Shown here: piece after piece, positions 13,231-23,151 of the stretch
Layout of the letters: the number at the start of each line of letters is the position of its first letter
Numbering within the stretch: the stretch's first letter is position 1
Source of the DNA: an uncultured Bacilli bacterium
GTDB lineage: Bacteria; Bacillota_I; Bacilli_A; RF39; UBA660
NCBI GenBank assembly: GCA_934190785.1
Contig: CAKPTA010000001.1
Location: 111,540-175,539 of the forward strand
Direction: 5' to 3'
Length of the DNA stretch: 64,000 bases
Translations under genes and position numbers: made by a program
The notes under the pieces: generated by a model
The model's database searches: none
What the model was told of the DNA's origin: nothing
Seen by the model: the letters and a program-made list of their open reading frames with translations, nothing else

Positions 13231-13860
13231 ATGGATAGTAAAAGAGTTTTTATTGGAGTATACAAAGATACTAATCAAGAATCATTGTTTTACCAAAAAG
13301 ATAATGGCTTATTTCGTGATTTGATAAAAAGTAGATCTGTTTCTATTGATGAATTAGAAAGTAATTTAATTTCTTATGATAGTTTTTGTGATAATATTAT
13401 AGAACACAGCAGTAAGGCAATTTCTTATGATAGTTTTTATGCTAACATTATAGAACACAAAAGTAAATTTAAAAGAAATATGATTAAGCTATATAATTAT
13501 GATAGAATGCAGAAAGTATCGTTAAAAAGAGTGTTTATAGGGAATAGTTATGTAGTTGCTAAAATACTTAATAGAGATTTTTTTGGTTTTTCATCATGTA
13601 CAACAACTTATAGCAGTCAAAAATTAGGTGATAGAATATTATTATATTCTGAAGATTATGATCTAGAATATAGTGATTTTATTGATATAGAGAATAATGA
13701 ATATTATAAGAATTTATTTTGTCCAGAAAAAGGAGATATTTATATTTCGATAGATGATTTAAAACCGGCTTCATTAGAACTTAATATTCATGATACGGTT
13801 GTTGAAAAACAAAAGTTGTTAGAAAAATATAGAACGTATAAAAAAGGAGGTAACAAATGA
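13231..13860 (+). CDS. hypothetical protein inserted between rpsO and pnp; contains an internal tandem repeat
   Basis: 209 aa. The repeat unit ISYDSF(C/Y)(D/A)NIIEH(S/K)SK occurs twice. A second module (KRVFIG...) is also duplicated. Overlaps the pnp start by 4 nt. Confidence 0.4.
13369..13470 (+). repeat. direct tandem repeat, 2 x 51 bp (~85% identical), in-frame within the CDS
   Basis: Copy 1 at 13369-13419 and copy 2 at 13420-13470, read directly. Confidence 0.7.
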
Positions 13861-16557: not shown

Positions 16558-19182
16558 ATGATTCAAGATTTTAAAAATAAAACAAAAGAAGAACGCCTTA
16601 TGCTATTATCAAACAGTGAATTTATAAAAAGTATTTTAGCGATGCCACCAGCTTCTCTTAATGCTTTTGGACTTTCCCTTAGTAATGATGAAATGCAAAA
16701 GTTTGTTCCATATGCATCTGATTTTACAAAAGTAGATAGAATTCGTTTTAATGCTTTTTTTAAAACATTTGGTTCAAATATTCAGAAACAATTTTTTGAT
16801 AATGAAGAATTTTTAACGTTTTACATGGAAGCAAAAAAAACACAGCGAGGATATCATCCTTTTATGTCACTTCCTGAGGATGTAAAATTATACGTTTTAG
16901 AGAAACATGAATATATTATGAGTCATATAAATAATCTTGAATATATACATAATTTAAATAAAGAAAATGAAAGATTATATCTTGATTCACTTGATACATA
17001 TATAAAAAATAATTGTAGTGATGAGCTTAAAAACATTCCTATCACTGAGCTTAGATATGTATATAGCTTGTACCATGATAAAGATTATTCTAAAGTTAAA
17101 GCTTGGTGTAAACGGGAATTTCAAATTGAAGATGAAGAATTATTTGAAAGCTTATTTAATTTAATTATTCATAATCATGCTAAACTTACTTATGCCCTAA
17201 CACTAAAAACAGAGTTAGAATGGTTATTATATTTAAAATTTGATATTTATATACCATCATTAGATGAAAAAAGTGAAAATCTAGGTATTAAACTGGATAA
17301 AGAATTATTAAAAAAAGTTAGAGTACATGATGTTAACCGTATATATAGAGAATTAGCTAATACTAATGAATTAAATGATTATGAAAAGCTTATTTTATCA
17401 CTTAATGCGTATAGTGTTTTGGGGCTTGATAATAGTTTAAAACTAGTCCGTGGTAAGTTTTCAAATATAACAGATCGTGCTCTTGATAGATCAGCAAGAT
17501 TAGATTTTACTGATAGTAGAAGAGAATATAGAATAAAACATCAAGATGAGTTTTACGGTTATCAATTATTTGATAAAGTAAAAAGGTGTTTTAAAGATGA
17601 AGAATATACATATCTAGAAAATATTTTTAAAATAAATCATAATGAAATAGATGAGTATATAAATGAAATATATTCCATGTGGAAGAAGAATGAAAAACAT
17701 GAAGAGTGGGATACCTTTTTAGCCCATATAATAAAAACAACAATTACTAGACGTGAGAAAAATTTAGAAAAAGAACACATTGAAAAATTTAAGAAAAATT
17801 ATCTAGCAAAAAGAACACATGATGTAACAATTAAAGATGTATTTATGTGTTTTCGTGATATTGATTTAAGTAATATTTCTTACAATGATAAGGGTAAACC
17901 TATAATTAATCCAGTTTTAGTTACATTTTTACTGGGAAATGAAAAAGTTGATAATGATTGTTTAATTAGACTTGTTTTAAATGGACTAGCTTTTGGACTT
18001 AATTATACGCTTGCAAATACAATTAATCATTTTAAAGCTTTAAATGATATAATTGAAAAATCTAAAGGTAAAATGAATATTAATTCTCTTTTAGATGTAA
18101 TTGATGCTAGTAAAGTATTACTTTATGAATTAGAGCCTGATGAGCAAGATATTTCTCTTGCTACAATAGCTAAAATTCAGTCTTCAAGGCAGCATTGCAA
18201 TGAACCTGTTGATGTAATTATAAGAAAAGTAAAAAAGCTTCATCATGAGAGAAAAAGTAAAGTAGCAGCTACAATTCCATTTGTTCGTGGAATAAGTGCT
18301 AATGGTATTTCTTATGGTATATTAGAGTATGATGATGAAAAAGTACTTACGGCTGGAATAGATACTGGAAGTTGTTTTAGAGTAGGCGCTAGAGGTGAAG
18401 ATTTTCTACGCTATTGTGCATTAGATAAAAATGGCGCTATATTATCCCTTACAACTAAAGAAGGTAATTATTACATTTGTCCACTTATTAGAAATGGGAA
18501 CAGTGTTTATGGAAATGGCATAGATCCAGAACCAAAAACAGAAAAAGAGACAGAGGAACTATTAACAACAATTAAAGAATGTTTCTCTAAAATGTGCCTT
18601 CGAAGTGATAAAAAAGAACCAATTGAAATAGGTGTTATCACTGATTTACATAATAAAAATTATTTTGAACATGAAACTTATGAAAAATTTAATTCTAAGG
18701 AAGCTTTTATGCTAGGAGAATACTGTTATACTGATTACTATAAATCAACAATTCAAAATTATATAATTTATAAAGAAAATAATGCTGAAACTAAATATTA
18801 CAATCCTAACATTGTTTATAGTGAGCCACGCCAAAAACCATATACATATATTTCATCAGTAGAGCAAGATAAAGAACGAATTAACCTTTTAATAAATTCA
18901 ATTGGTTACACAATATATAAAGAGGAATTAATTAAAGAAAAAAGTAGAAAAAAAGCTTTTAAAACATATAAACCATTTAATGTTGATGATTTTAAATCAA
19001 TTAATGGTGCTAAAGATTGGTTTGTAGGAATAAAAGACAACTTAACAGTTGAAAGTAGATGCTTACCATATGATAAAAGAGCAAAAATTGAAATGTATAA
19101 CGCTTTAGCTAAAATAGAAGAACAACTAAATTTTTCAGAAACTATGGAGGAAAATCTATCATGCGAGAAGAAAAAGGTATAA
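16558..19182 (+). CDS. large hypothetical protein (874 aa)
   Basis: Long uninterrupted ORF with TTGACA-17-TATATT promoter upstream. No recognised domain. Confidence 0.4.
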   Translation: MIQDFKNKTKEERLMLLSNSEFIKSILAMPPASLNAFGLSLSNDEMQKFVPYASDFTKVDRIRFNAFFKTFGSNIQKQFFDNEEFLTFYMEAKKTQRGYHPFMSLPEDVKLYVLEKHEYIMSHINNLEYIHNLNKENERLYLDSLDTYIKNNCSDELKNIPITELRYVYSLYHDKDYSKVKAWCKREFQIEDEELFESLFNLIIHNHAKLTYALTLKTELEWLLYLKFDIYIPSLDEKSENLGIKLDKELLKKVRVHDVNRIYRELANTNELNDYEKLILSLNAYSVLGLDNSLKLVRGKFSNITDRALDRSARLDFTDSRREYRIKHQDEFYGYQLFDKVKRCFKDEEYTYLENIFKINHNEIDEYINEIYSMWKKNEKHEEWDTFLAHIIKTTITRREKNLEKEHIEKFKKNYLAKRTHDVTIKDVFMCFRDIDLSNISYNDKGKPIINPVLVTFLLGNEKVDNDCLIRLVLNGLAFGLNYTLANTINHFKALNDIIEKSKGKMNINSLLDVIDASKVLLYELEPDEQDISLATIAKIQSSRQHCNEPVDVIIRKVKKLHHERKSKVAATIPFVRGISANGISYGILEYDDEKVLTAGIDTGSCFRVGARGEDFLRYCALDKNGAILSLTTKEGNYYICPLIRNGNSVYGNGIDPEPKTEKETEELLTTIKECFSKMCLRSDKKEPIEIGVITDLHNKNYFEHETYEKFNSKEAFMLGEYCYTDYYKSTIQNYIIYKENNAETKYYNPNIVYSEPRQKPYTYISSVEQDKERINLLINSIGYTIYKEELIKEKSRKKAFKTYKPFNVDDFKSINGAKDWFVGIKDNLTVESRCLPYDKRAKIEMYNALAKIEEQLNFSETMEENLSCEKKKV

Positions 19183-19373: not shown

Positions 19374-19423
19374 TTTTATTATATAAGAATTCTAAGTACA
19401 CCCACGCTCCACTTGACAAGTGG

Positions 19424-19454
19424 GGGGGGGGTGTATGCTAAAATACACTTTAGA
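19424..19454 (+). promoter_or_regulatory. putative sigma-A promoter (TTGACA ... TAAAAT) with a 19-nt spacer containing a G9 homopolymer
   Basis: -35 TTGACA at 19424-19429 lies inside the perfect palindrome ccacttg-a-caagtgg. -10 TAAAAT at 19449-19454. G run at 19433-19441. Confidence 0.4.
19433..19441. repeat. poly-G homopolymeric tract (9 G)
   Basis: Read directly. This is the only such G/C run in the window. Confidence 0.9.
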
Positions 19455-19472
19455 ATAGAGGTGTATTTTTTT

Positions 19473-21065
19473 ATGAAAAAGAAAGGTTTTACTTTAATAG
19501 AATTACTTGCCGTAATAGTTATTTTAGCTGTTGTTGCACTAATATCAATGCCACTAGTATTAAATACAATAGATAAGGCAAAGAAAGGTGCAGCTATAGA
19601 ATCAGCTAATGGTGTTATATCAGCAGCTGAGAATAAATACATGAGTAGTATGATAACAGGAGATAAAGATACAAGATTTGATTTTCCAAGTGATACCAAG
19701 TTATCAATCAAAGGAACAAGACCAACAAGTGGAACAGTTGTCGTTGATAAGAAAGGTAATATAAGTGCTACTTTAGAAATAAATGGATACTGCATAGAAA
19801 AGACGTTTCTTGAAACATCACCAAAAGTAATAGAAAAAAGTCCATGTACAATTAGTGATAGTGAGCTTTTTGAAGCAGAAAAATATAAAGATTCTGTTTT
19901 AAATGGAGCAGACCCTGTTATAAATAGTGACTTAGTAGCAGTAACAATAGAAAATGATGGAACAGTAAAAAAAGCCGATATCAAAAAAGAATGGTATAAC
20001 TATAAAAATAAAGTATGGGCCAATGCGATTATTCTAAAAGATAAAACAATAAACTATGAAGATAATGAGGTAATACCAGAAAGTAATATAGAATCATATT
20101 TTGTATGGATACCAAGATATAAATATAGAATCTTTAATGAAGGAAATTATACAAACTATATAGAAGGAAAACCAGAAAGTTCAAGCAAACCAGATACAAT
20201 AGAAATAGTATTTGAAAATAAAGATACAAGTGTATCAAATGGTTCAAAGGTAGGAGAATACTTAACACATCCAGCCTTTACAAGTTTTGAAAGTAATGGA
20301 TTTTGGATGGGAAAATTTGAAACAACTGGAAGTACAAGTAATATAACAGTAAAACCAAATAATACATCACTTCGAAATATAAATGTAAAATCAATGTTTG
20401 AGTTAGCTTACAATTATAATAGAAATCTAGATAGTCATATGCTAAAGAATACTGAGTGGGGAGCAGCTACATACTTATCATATTCAGTATATGGAATAAA
20501 TGATGAAGTAAATATAAATAATAATAGTAACTTTGTAACAGGATATAGTGCGGTTTCTGGAACAGATCAAAGTAGTTATCCTGGAACATATGGAACTGAT
20601 ACAAGTGTAACACTTGCATATAATACAGAAACAGGGTATAAGGCAAGTACAACTGGAAATATAAGTGGAGTATATGATATGAGTGGAGGAGCATGGGAAT
20701 ACATGGCTTCATATATGAAAGATACATATAAAGATAGCGGTTTTGATGCAGCCTCAATATCTTCATATAATTCAAAATACTTTGATATTTATCCAAGTGA
20801 TAGTGGTTGGACAAGTTATAATAAACGAATTTTAGGAGATGCGACAGGAGAGATAGGGCCATTCTATTATTACAAAGATAAAGATGGAAATAACAGAATA
20901 CATAACTCTTGGTTTGGGGACTACTCTTATTTCGTTGACGCTTCTTACCCTTGGTTCGTACGCGGAGGCCGTTACGCCAACGGTGTTCTTGCAGGTCAGT
21001 CGTTTTTTGATAGGTCTACTGGTGTTGCGAGCAGTTGGAATGGCTTCCGCCTTGCATTAATATAA
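19473..21065 (+). CDS. type IV prepilin-like N-terminus fused to a formylglycine-generating-enzyme (FGE/SUMF1) family domain
   Basis: MKKKG|FTLIELLAVIVILAVVALI is the prepilin cleavage/methylation motif (Gly-1, Phe+1, Glu+5). The C-terminal domain carries FGE hallmarks (...TEWGAATY..., GGAWEYM, RGGRYANG...SWNGFRLAL). I prefer ATG 19473 to the upstream track start, which reads through the G tract. Confidence 0.6.
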   Translation: MKKKGFTLIELLAVIVILAVVALISMPLVLNTIDKAKKGAAIESANGVISAAENKYMSSMITGDKDTRFDFPSDTKLSIKGTRPTSGTVVVDKKGNISATLEINGYCIEKTFLETSPKVIEKSPCTISDSELFEAEKYKDSVLNGADPVINSDLVAVTIENDGTVKKADIKKEWYNYKNKVWANAIILKDKTINYEDNEVIPESNIESYFVWIPRYKYRIFNEGNYTNYIEGKPESSSKPDTIEIVFENKDTSVSNGSKVGEYLTHPAFTSFESNGFWMGKFETTGSTSNITVKPNNTSLRNINVKSMFELAYNYNRNLDSHMLKNTEWGAATYLSYSVYGINDEVNINNNSNFVTGYSAVSGTDQSSYPGTYGTDTSVTLAYNTETGYKASTTGNISGVYDMSGGAWEYMASYMKDTYKDSGFDAASISSYNSKYFDIYPSDSGWTSYNKRILGDATGEIGPFYYYKDKDGNNRIHNSWFGDYSYFVDASYPWFVRGGRYANGVLAGQSFFDRSTGVASSWNGFRLALI

Positions 21066-21080
21066 AAATAATTATTTTTA

Positions 21081-21101
21081 AAGACAATTTTGTCTTTTTT
21101 T
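21081..21101 (+). terminator. rho-independent terminator after the pilin-FGE gene
   Basis: aagacaa-tt-ttgtctt followed by T7. Confidence 0.5.
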
Positions 21102-21125
21102 GTTATACTATTAGCAGTGATATTT

Positions 21126-22079
21126 ATGAATGAATTAGAATTAATAAATGATGTTGTTAGCAAGTATATATCCGATTGTAATATAGAAGATATGAACGAT
21201 TTTAGATTTTTAACGTCTTTAATTGATATTTTTGATAGTAATTATAAGGGAAATAAAGTTAGAGATTTTAAGAAACGTGTTTCTTTGAAACGTTGTCTTA
21301 AATATGCATATGATTTTTTTATGTCTATTAATTCAGACTATGCGGCTTACTTAGAAAAACGTTTAGATGAAGGTGCTTTTATCTTTGAAACTGGTAAAGA
21401 AAAGTATGACAATAATTTATCTATTTCTAGTATTATTGATGGTAAAGCAAAGATGATAGTATATCTTCAAAATACTATTAATGATGCTTATGCAATTACG
21501 CATGAGCTTATTCATGATATGACTATAGAAAGAGAAGGAGTAGATAATTCTGCTACAAGATCTGTATTTTGTGAAATGTTTTCCTTATTGGGAGAAGAAC
21601 TTTTAAGAGATTATTTTGAAAGGACTACTAGGCCAAGTGAGTATGAACTTGAGAGTAAATATAATTTATATGTAATCTCTTGGAAAAATAAAATTATTTT
21701 ATATGAGCTTCATTTAATTGAAACTTATCTTAATAATGGGTATATTCATGCTACTGATTTAGCTTATGGTGATGATGATCTTGTATGCGGTATTGCACTT
21801 GATGATATTTTAGATAATAAGGATTTAAGTTTTCCTTTTGAAGAAAGGTATGTAATAGGTTATTTATTTGCGTGTTATATGCTTGATAGAGTTGATAGTA
21901 ATAGTAAAAATATTAATGAATTTTTTGAACTTAATGATATTATTAATAAATTTAAATTTTTAAATTTGACAAATTATTTAGAACTTGATGTAGTGGATGC
22001 TAGAACATTTGATTTAACAGATGAATCTTATAAAAAGATAGAAAATGCTTTTGTTAAAAGGTTAAAGAAAGTTAGGTAA
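21126..22079 (+). CDS. HExxH...E putative gluzincin metallopeptidase, paralog 1
   Basis: HELIH, then a Glu about 20 aa downstream (FCEMFS). I prefer ATG 21126 because the track TTG start lies inside the terminator. Confidence 0.45.
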   Translation: MNELELINDVVSKYISDCNIEDMNDFRFLTSLIDIFDSNYKGNKVRDFKKRVSLKRCLKYAYDFFMSINSDYAAYLEKRLDEGAFIFETGKEKYDNNLSISSIIDGKAKMIVYLQNTINDAYAITHELIHDMTIEREGVDNSATRSVFCEMFSLLGEELLRDYFERTTRPSEYELESKYNLYVISWKNKIILYELHLIETYLNNGYIHATDLAYGDDDLVCGIALDDILDNKDLSFPFEERYVIGYLFACYMLDRVDSNSKNINEFFELNDIINKFKFLNLTNYLELDVVDARTFDLTDESYKKIENAFVKRLKKVR

Positions 22080-22107
22080 ATGATTGTAAAATAAAGTGGG
22101 GGTAATA

Positions 22108-23151
22108 ATGGTGACAGTAGAAGAGTATAAAAAATTAAATGATTATTTAAATGGCTGTTTTATTAAATTAGAAAGAAATGACTGGTTTTTATTAGATAAT
22201 ATAAGTTTTTTTGATAAACTTAGTAAAGCTTTTATTGAAACTGTTAATGAATATGATTTAGGCATGAATACTGAAGCTTGTAATATTAGTTTTAATGATA
22301 TTTACGTTTTAGCTCGTGAAATTCTTGAAGATATTTCACCATCATATTTGCCTATATTTGATACTTTAATAAAAAGCGGCGAGCTTGATTTTAGTTATGA
22401 GAATGAATATAAAACTTCTTGTGTTACATATGATCATTTAAATGATGTTTCTCTAATTAATATTAATTTAAGTTTTACACATCAAGATGTTGCTACTTTA
22501 ATTCATGAGTTTATGCATAAAATTAATTATGGCAATTCTTTTAATTGGTATATATTTACAGAATTTATCTCTATTTATTTTGAGGAATATGCGAAACGAT
22601 ATTTACTTAATAAAGGCATTTTTAAAGATAGTTTGAATTTAAATCTTAGAATATCTAATACATTAATATGTGCAAGTGATATTGTTAGTTATTCTCGTAT
22701 TATTTTTGCATATGAAAAAATGGGTAAAATTGATATGAATTCATATGAATTTTTAGATGAATATTTTACTCCTACAGATAAAGATGATTTTGAAGATGAA
22801 TGTAAAGTATTTTTACAAAAAATTCAAAAAATTGAGAATAGTTATAAAATGTCTATTTTGTATGAAAAAGATTTTAATGAAAATGAATTATATGATAAAA
22901 TTATTAGAAGTTTATCTAAGGGGTATCGTTATATTTTAGGAACTGCCGTAGCTTATTATGCATTAGAACATTGTAATAAAGAAGATATTGTATATTTATC
23001 TTGGCATATTAATGATGAAGAGTTTAGAAATATTTCTTTTTTTGAATGTTTAAATAAAATTGGAATAAGTAGTGATATTATAACGATTAATGATTGTACT
23101 GATGCGGTAAAAAAGGTACTTGAAAATAATTCACATAAAAAAGATAGGTGA
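22108..23151 (+). CDS. HExxH...E putative gluzincin metallopeptidase, paralog 2
   Basis: HEFMH ... FTEFIS. Same size and layout as paralog 1. Ends 5 nt before miaA. Confidence 0.45.
   Translation: MVTVEEYKKLNDYLNGCFIKLERNDWFLLDNISFFDKLSKAFIETVNEYDLGMNTEACNISFNDIYVLAREILEDISPSYLPIFDTLIKSGELDFSYENEYKTSCVTYDHLNDVSLININLSFTHQDVATLIHEFMHKINYGNSFNWYIFTEFISIYFEEYAKRYLLNKGIFKDSLNLNLRISNTLICASDIVSYSRIIFAYEKMGKIDMNSYEFLDEYFTPTDKDDFEDECKVFLQKIQKIENSYKMSILYEKDFNENELYDKIIRSLSKGYRYILGTAVAYYALEHCNKEDIVYLSWHINDEEFRNISFFECLNKIGISSDIITINDCTDAVKKVLENNSHKKDR

Follow-up and report, generated by a model that had tools for sequence, protein, structure and literature searches.

A probable modular type IV pilin with a retroelement-type variable lectin-fold module in an uncultured gut Bacilli bacterium

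The gene at 19473–21065 of a 64,000-nucleotide stretch of DNA from an uncultured Bacilli bacterium (contig CAKPTA010000001.1, positions 111,540 to 175,539; the whole stretch is called the window here) in all likelihood encodes a modular type IV pilin whose tip has a lectin fold of the kind varied by diversity-generating retroelements (DGRs). With the same degree of confidence, we regard it as a remote copy of a multi-copy family and its product as a rapidly evolvable surface adhesin of a gut bacterium. The protein would be displayed on a filament, where it presumably acts in adhesion. The features of the gene that bear on this reading are given below, with residues numbered from the start codon.

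19473 to 21065, forward strand: coding sequence of 530 amino acids, a predicted modular type IV pilin with a C-terminal DGR-type C-type-lectin module.
19473 to 19487, forward strand: class III leader MKKKG, with predicted cleavage after G5 and F6 as the N-methylated first residue.
19488 to 19850, forward strand: pilin module, residues 6 to about 126, with a hydrophobic alpha1-N (Glu at +5, Pro at mature position 22), an alpha1 helix at residues 8–62, a small beta-sheet and the cysteines C107 and C125.
19878 to 21062, forward strand: C-terminal module, residues 136–530, a C-type lectin fold, FGE (formylglycine-generating enzyme) subtype, with inserts, TaqVP-like, predicted to bind a ligand.
20910 to 21059, forward strand: variable region (VR), codons 480–529 (the last 150 nt before the stop), delimited by composition, hypervariability and template alignment.
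21040 to 21059, forward strand: GC-rich 3' end of the VR, GGCTTCCGCCTTGCATTA, from alignments a candidate for an element like the initiation of mutagenic homing sequence, a function suggested by the DGR literature (PMC6328139).

The tail of the gene stands apart in composition. Adenine accounts for 0.19 of the VR (20910–21059) versus 0.43 of the gene body, and GC for 0.47 versus 0.30; across the last ~170 nt of the gene, GC lies at 0.47–0.54 and A at 0.13–0.19. When the 64 kb are scanned in 120-nt segments, this tail is the sole stretch with GC above 0.45 besides a tRNA pair. It is also where homologues diverge: in those that are 83–94% identical to the protein overall, almost all amino-acid changes fall within residues 482–530, and among five paralogs the number of variable DNA columns per 60-nt block is 1–19 in the body and 33–45 in the last 200 nt. 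GC-rich GGCTTCCGCC is present at the end of the VR, with a hairpin downstream at 21080–21097. The original prediction had read the terminal RGG...SWNGFRLAL block as a hallmark of the FGE-sulfatase family; this block is not a conserved catalytic motif but a DGR target VR, depleted in A, rich in GC, hypervariable and, in relatives, templated.

The templating is seen directly in related genomes. We fetched 79 related loci and compared the tail of each gene with its surroundings, and five of these loci have a direct repeat of the tail 300–400 nt downstream of the gene, with mismatches at the adenines of the repeat, as follows.

L056: 12 of 12 mismatches at template adenines.
L043: 16 of 16 mismatches at template adenines.
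L027: 23 of 25 mismatches at template adenines.
L074: 10 of 11 mismatches at template adenines.
L029: 18 of 24 mismatches at template adenines.

The repeats translate into Asn-rich peptides, for example NSSNPWFERGGNWNNGTEAGSFAFNNNTGGTNTNISFRVVLA. Each repeat is followed by a protein with MutS domain I, then by bAvd (72–76 bits) and then by a reverse transcriptase (RT; RVT_1, 62–63 bits, with IGNYTSQ and YMDD motifs). The MutS domain (MutS_I, PF01624, 38–48 bits) lies in a small MutS-like (MSL) protein of 123–148 amino acids, and every DGR cassette of the family that we recovered has such a protein between template repeat (TR) and Avd (L027:12232-12603, L043:2534-2980, L056:11835-12272, L084:936-1316).

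Three further loci (L084, L085 and L086) were recovered by a pattern scan of metagenomes. L084, from a human-gut contig, shows the 3' end of a target, a template repeat encoding WFGDNSNFVDASNPWFERGGNYTNGVLAGQSNFNRNTGGANGWDGFRLALAD, MSL, Avd (NF033474 DivGenRetAVD, 86.4 bits; cut-off 80) and RT, in this order. Its template, TR_L084, is 151 nt long with 30 adenines and was the reference for the following counts.

L082 VR: 15 of 15 mismatches at template adenines.
L084 VR, in cis: 12 of 13 mismatches at template adenines.
L086 VR, on a different contig of the same assembly as L084: 21 of 21 mismatches at template adenines.

The L086 count, with every mismatch at an adenine of a template on another contig, speaks directly for rewriting of remote copies in trans. 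A second such case is L063, which differs from TR_L043 within one metagenome-assembled genome (MAG) at 17 positions, 14 of them at A. L082 and L084 represent one locus in two samples: every difference between their VRs sits at a template adenine, and the sequence downstream is almost the same. L082 also has a copy of the template repeat 170 nt past the target (L082:11764-11913) without MSL, Avd or RT. Beyond this repeat, L082 no longer matches L084 and continues into a ClpB-like gene; the explanation is either a join made there during assembly or a template without a cassette.

The link between this templating and the pilin architecture is provided by L027, which comes from a more distant MAG (PNPase 79% and AlaRS 74% identical at the protein level). 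The gene order there is PNPase, a prepilin-type target (MKKGFTLIELL..., 551 amino acids), TR, MSL, Avd, an intact RT of 350 amino acids, an AI-2E transporter, dNMP kinase and AlaRS. In the window this gene framework recurs with the cassette absent. From this synteny it follows that the combination of prepilin and lectin fold is a cis DGR target, and that the window locus is related in position to one next to a DGR. Adenine-specific templating thus occurs in the family both in cis and in trans.

The VR of the window copy aligns without gaps to both TR_L084 and TR_L082, and 13 of its 25 mismatches to the former and 15 of its 28 to the latter lie at template adenines. Adenine being 20% of the template, this is an enrichment (binomial p 3e-4), though not an exclusive placement. 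Codons 484, 486, 492, 496, 500, 502, 511, 513, 515, 518, 520, 521 and 523 differ from the nearest template repeat. Ten of these 13 amino-acid differences are at adenine-containing codons and eight of the ten at template Asn codons, which have changed from N to Y, Y, Y, R, F, D, S and S. An excess of variable columns (odds ratio 4.2, p 4.5e-4) is likewise seen where more distant TRs have A. That the VR of the window copy was made by a DGR is well supported; ongoing diversification of this copy we hold to be about evenly balanced between yes and no.

The N-terminal part is a pilin in both signal and fold. The class III (prepilin) signal claimed by the original prediction is borne out by PF07963 N_methyl (30.9 bits; cut-off 21.2) and TIGR02532 (30.5 bits; cut-off 16.3), and the leader (MKKKG/FTLIE) has Gly at -1, Phe at +1 and Glu at +5. 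A profile of the family matches solved type IV pilins in the PDB (E 2e-8), with F6 opposite residue 1 of the mature pilins. The AlphaFold model of the protein (mean pLDDT 84, pTM 0.76) has two confidently folded modules joined by a low-pLDDT linker around residues 121–140 (pLDDT blocks 58 and 68), and in the first of them a hydrophobic alpha1-N continues into a long helix packed on a beta-sheet. What had been described as a spacer of ~130 amino acids is therefore a globular pilin module, with its helix at 8–62, its beta-sheet and the pair C107–C125. These two cysteines are the only ones in the protein, lie in the pilin module and are nearly invariant across the family. From this architecture, display on a type IV filament is plausible.

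The C-terminal module is predicted to be a non-catalytic ligand-binding domain. DGRs are known to diversify a C-type lectin/FGE-type fold at the extreme C-terminus of their targets, and the catalytic triad of human FGE is Ser333/Cys336/Cys341 (PMC6328139). The best fold match of the module, by a wide margin, is the DGR variable protein TaqVP, and the matches that follow score far lower (PvdO 11.8, TvpA 11.1, SUMF2 10.0, Mtd 9.8 and EgtB 9.6); TaqVP is also barely detectable with a sequence profile (E 0.0025). The relation to FGE that had been proposed holds for the broad FGE-sulfatase fold, although the Pfam FGE-sulfatase model (PF03781) covers only residues 312–420 and scores 20.1 bits, below its gathering threshold of 23.3. 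The original prediction left open an FGE-like enzyme or a binding module on a pilus; display and binding are plausible, but the enzyme half finds no support. The Pfam match is sub-threshold, the best fold match is a DGR variable protein, the segment equivalent to the active site is the hypervariable VR, and the domain contains no cysteine, C107 and C125 both belonging to the pilin module, so that a triad of the human FGE type is impossible in it (PMC6328139). A formylglycine-generating or other FGE-family enzyme mounted on a pilus is accordingly most improbable. This case also illustrates an annotation trap: a weak C-terminal FGE-sulfatase match on a surface protein, combined with a GC-rich, A-poor 3' tail, should be annotated as a DGR target rather than an enzyme.

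Several observations weigh against a DGR-variable pilin at this locus. The 64 kb contain no template repeat (repeat finder; word-7 blastn of the tail) and the window no RT, Avd or MSL (tblastn with the L056 and L043 proteins; Pfam scans). Twelve to thirteen mismatches of the VR fall at template C, G or T, with the TRs coming from other samples, and its last 8 nt have three differences from GCTTCCGCCTCGCTCTT, which the templates share with the cleanly templated VRs. In L085 (VOFC01000530.1), the same locus in a second sample, the VR is identical save one substitution and one indel. The sole cassette recovered from the clade of the gene, that of L084, has an RT split by a frameshift, on a contig of 4x coverage. 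Finally, Pfam scans of nearly all coding-strand open reading frames (ORFs) of at least 100 amino acids revealed no pilus machinery in the whole 64 kb, as the original prediction had also held. The non-adenine mismatches, the three changes in the terminal GC-rich element, the VR shared with L085, the lack of a cassette within 64 kb and its presence beside the gene in syntenic L027 would all be expected if the VR were a relic, that is, if the gene descended from a DGR target and now encoded a pilin adhesin of fixed sequence, the DGR having been lost or the 3' element having decayed. We take this possibility seriously while thinking it somewhat less probable than its opposite. The templates compared are from other samples, and TR alleles vary (TR_L082 and TR_L084 differ at four positions within their shared region); the non-adenine mismatches may reflect either another TR allele in the source genome or drift since the last rewriting. 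The sameness of the L085 VR says little about rate because the flanks are almost identical and the two are nearly one strain. Moreover, L086, a remote copy of the same clade, is cleanly templated in trans, and the VR of the window copy is still intact, in frame and strongly A-depleted. Ordinary positive selection with gene conversion, and no retroelement at all, is a further explanation of the hypervariability. It can draw on the comparison of the window with L085, in which the flanks show 0–3 mismatches per 500 nt, the gene body 67 and the VR one; this mosaic between near-identical strains suggests gene conversion among scattered paralogs. We nevertheless give this explanation hardly any credence, given that the repeat differences in relatives lie almost solely on template adenines, that those repeats adjoin Avd and RT genes, and that protein-level selection alone does not explain the A depletion and GC enrichment of the tail.

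The absence of filament machinery from the window favours another explanation, in which the protein is no pilus subunit and the signal serves as a cleavable anchor or pseudopilin stub, holding the lectin domain on the surface or wall as a receptor or sensor. In keeping with this, the module is also found behind anchors that are not pilins (of the top 150 representatives, 22 have a SipW/camelysin-like signal, 66 another hydrophobic N-terminus and 36 a prepilin-type one), so that the anchor looks interchangeable. A second prepilin motif was not found in the window, and a regular-expression hunt for pilin operons and machinery in about 1.2 Mb of related loci gave no machinery and one small prepilin gene cluster (L003). 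Against a mere anchor, conservation extends beyond the signal to the whole globular pilin module, with its helix, beta-sheet and Cys pair, and modular pilins of monoderms are assembled into type IV pili (PMC8179133). On balance we find this explanation improbable and prefer a pilin with a DGR-variable lectin-fold tip.

For such a pilin, we envisage the following course of events. Cleavage after G5 would be the work of a prepilin peptidase with its gene elsewhere in the genome, and the hydrophobic alpha1 would hold the protein in the membrane at first and later in a type IV filament. Because the cargo is bulky, a position at the filament tip would be most likely, as has been argued for S. sanguinis PilB and PilC (PMC8179133, PMC9934059). 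There, the lectin-fold module (residues 136–530) would bind its ligand through the surface formed by residues 484–523. Variation would arise by mutagenic retrohoming, in which the RT copies the A-rich template, adenines are randomised, and the gene's 3' end is overwritten by the cDNA; about 1e16 protein variants could be made from the nearest template. The MSL/Avd/RT cassette beside another copy would feed mutagenised cDNA in trans to those copies with a matching VR end, and the window copy would be one of at least five self-contained units, each with its own promoter/leader and gene, scattered among housekeeping genes.

That DGRs target proteins with an FGE-type lectin fold is textbook knowledge, modular type IV pilins are known, and so is a DGR target at the tip of a type V pilus; Mtd forms the tip of a phage tail fibre, and TvpA has been described as a lipoprotein. 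The claim of the original prediction that the architecture has essentially no functional characterisation therefore does not hold for the fold class, which is well characterised in Mtd, TvpA and TaqVP; descriptions are scarce only for its attachment to a type IV pilin. In TaqVP (Thermus aquaticus, PDB 5VF4), TvpA (2Y3C) and Mtd (1YU0), as here, the VR lies at the extreme C-terminus (40–45 amino acids there, 50 here), the last residues are invariant, and template Asn (AAY) codons supply the variability (PMC6328139). These proteins differ in having no type IV pilin module and in having template and RT next to the target, which here are not found within 64 kb. S. sanguinis PilB (vWA module) and PilC (lectin module) combine a small class III pilin module, a short linker and a bulky, presumably tip-exposed ligand binder, and the predicted model of the present protein looks alike, with a pilin module, a linker and a separately folded effector module in the sense in which modular pilins have been defined (PMC8179133, PMC9934059). 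The cargo here is, however, a DGR-type lectin with a programmed hypervariable surface, encoded in many copies outside a pil operon, and FGE/C-type lectin cargo is not mentioned in the main text of the modular pilin survey.

The closest functional precedent is found in the type V pilus tip adhesins of Bacteroides, likewise a gut bacterium, in which a DGR diversifies a C-type lectin on a pilus subunit (PMC11601372). Those pili belong to another phylum and are of type V, with lipoprotein or strand-exchange assembly, whereas type IV is at issue here; furthermore, the Bacteroides DGRs reside on conjugative elements beside their target, whereas here many chromosomal copies are served by an MSL-type cassette. 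DGRs that contain MSL have been classified as the rare 'Architecture D', with 16 examples (Wu et al. 2018, PMC5758913). L027, L043, L056 and L084 share its order of target, TR, MutS-like small protein, Avd and RT, whereas the window holds none of the cassette; the main text of that study makes no mention of pilin targets. The SUMF1/FGE family (PF03781) differs from the present protein in the three respects already given, namely the sub-threshold score, the lack of catalytic cysteines and the hypervariable segment in place of the active site. In the searchable literature we found no paper that joins diversity-generating retroelements with prepilins; there is one passing entry, in which a GspG-type pilin domain is listed with the rare target domains of DGRs (PMC11661182). 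What is new here is accordingly the type IV pilin as a carrier of a DGR-variable lectin module, which that passing mention aside is little described.

Copies ~89–97% identical to the gene at the DNA level, and 83–94% identical at the protein level, occur in at least five genomic contexts.

Window copy: between PNPase and MiaA.
L081 copy: after RnfC.
L082/L084 copy: after RecO/DUF212.
L001/L083 copy: between YfhO and UvrA.
L086 copy: a fifth context.

Homology between the copies begins 82 nt before the ATG and stops at the VR; the duplicated unit is therefore the promoter/leader together with the gene. L083 (positions 1-60), the ortholog of the L001 copy in the UvrA context (L001:9920-10000), lacks a ~55-nt segment with the -35 hexamer, the G tract and the first hairpin, which looks like a promoter loss in one sample.

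The family as a whole is large. A search with the full-length protein gave at least 7969 matches at E <= 1e-3 among the best 8000 scored candidates, and the family comprises at least about 8000 clusters at 90% identity; with the C-terminal module alone there are 3581 representatives of 50%-identity clusters at E <= 1e-3 and 2562 at E <= 1e-10. This module almost always sits at the C-terminus of the protein, and the mixed N-termini counted above imply that it is mounted on several kinds of anchor. SipW/camelysin-like signals (SYAYY/SYSLF; PF12389 is precomputed for some) and other anchors precede it in P0061, P0067, L056:9398-11308 and L043:109-2034, and the DGR-proximal targets of L043 and L056 are of this non-pilin type. 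NCBIfam holds no name for the non-pilin N-termini. Two giant proteins, P0121 (3713 amino acids) and P0122 (4516 amino acids), contain the module up to eight times. Single MAGs have matches on several contigs, with a maximum of eight loci in MAG CATNCE01, several of which hold more than one copy. A VR-type shift in composition is present in 60 of 98 family tails in the fetched loci, and templates within 10 kb are limited to a handful of loci. A tblastn search of the C-terminal module against 50,697 phage records gave no match, and hence no evidence for an origin from a tail fibre, and two pattern scans of viral contigs gave 0 matches.

The ORF itself is real. It begins with ATG at 19473, 9 nt downstream of the Shine-Dalgarno sequence AGAGGTG, and ends with TAA at 21063–21065. 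A longer ORF from a TTG at 19413 was rejected because the homologues begin with MKKKGFTLIELL, as does the window protein, and because a prepilin leader must be short. No exact match to the full protein is on record. Around the gene we found the following elements.

19391 to 19472, forward strand: conserved 5' unit common to all paralogous loci; homology to the paralogs L001, L081 and L082 begins at 19391.
Within this unit, forward strand: TTGACA at 19413–19418, a G10 tract at 19422–19431, the -10 candidates TATGCT and TAAAAT, and the Shine-Dalgarno sequence AGAGGTG at 19457–19463.
About 19396 to 19436 and 19440 to 19469, forward strand: two strong hairpins of the 5' unit (RNA fold -36.5 kcal/mol, z -6.8).
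21065 to 21102, forward strand: palindrome AAAAATAATTATTTTT, then the hairpin AAAGACA-ATTT-TGTCTTT (21080–21097), then a T-run, from reading of the sequence and an inverted match.

The first leader hairpin, in which ACACCC...CCACT pairs with AGTGG...GGGTGT, spans the -35 hexamer and the G tract; the second (19440–19469) masks the Shine-Dalgarno sequence and is followed by a U-run and the ATG. Rfam has no match at the locus, the leader hairpins included. The upstream sequence with its G10 is identical in four different genomic contexts. Downstream, the hairpin and T-run at 21065–21102 are likely to form a weak intrinsic terminator, and the hairpin at 21080–21097 is equally compatible with the hairpin that DGR targets carry 3' of the VR; L082, L084, L086 and L001 have analogous hairpins in this position. 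That the gene has its own promoter and terminator, as had been proposed, is thus plausible: the 82-nt upstream segment is kept with the gene in all paralogous loci and a weak hairpin with a T-run follows it, although promoter and terminator scanners call neither (the terminator scanner requires at least three G-C pairs).

The window has a GC content of ~27%, and its genes are mostly housekeeping genes, with Mur ligase, Ddl, UvrC, PNPase, MiaA, AlaRS, MreCD, Obg and MutL among them and a few ORFs unannotated. The presence of Mur ligase, Ddl and others implies that the organism makes peptidoglycan. Among public genomes, those nearest to it are MAGs from the gut that bear the label uncultured Bacilli or Tenericutes. 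Directly downstream of the pilin gene are two ORFs without a Pfam match (21126–22079, 317 amino acids; 22096–23151, 351 amino acids) with the HExxH motifs THELIHD and IHEFMHK, which may encode two divergent metallopeptidases. Upstream, an ORF of 874 amino acids (16558–19182) has no Pfam match either, and a tandem 51-nt direct repeat, 84% identical, lies at 13360–13461 within an unannotated ORF of 209 amino acids upstream of PNPase.

The promoter of the gene may add a further layer of variation. The G10 tract (19422–19431) lies between TTGACA and the candidate -10 hexamers (19413–19444) and is the only G or C run of at least 8 in the 64 kb. The related loci, 1.22 Mb in all, hold 31 runs of at least seven G, without exception on the gene strand; the majority sit immediately upstream of genes of this family or of other signal-peptide genes, with TTGAC(A/T) on one side and a TAT..T hexamer on the other. 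Such tracts (G7–G11) are found at L016:1388, 2719 and 12790, L026:8729 and 9762, and L043:94, also in L044, L062 and others, and one contig has near-identical promoter copies with G9, G10 and G11. These tracts may be a means of slipped-strand phase variation of expression. Tentatively, and with the odds against it in our view, the surface of these bacteria might then vary in two layers, with scattered pilin-adhesin cassettes whose tips are rewritten in trans by a single MutS-like/Avd/RT retroelement and each of which is switched independently through slippage of the poly-G tract in its promoter.

To our knowledge, DGR variable proteins are the most variable proteins known, and their ligands and display are understood for few of them. 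A DGR variable protein on a type IV pilin joins two well-studied systems and predicts a filament whose tip specificity would be rewritable in vivo. The family occurs mainly in low-GC gut Bacilli that are uncultured and carry many copies per genome, and it may be one of their main means of attachment to hosts, mucus or partner cells. If the two layers of variation are real, phase variation and programmed hypermutation would be combined on one family of filament adhesins of these uncultured gut Bacilli.

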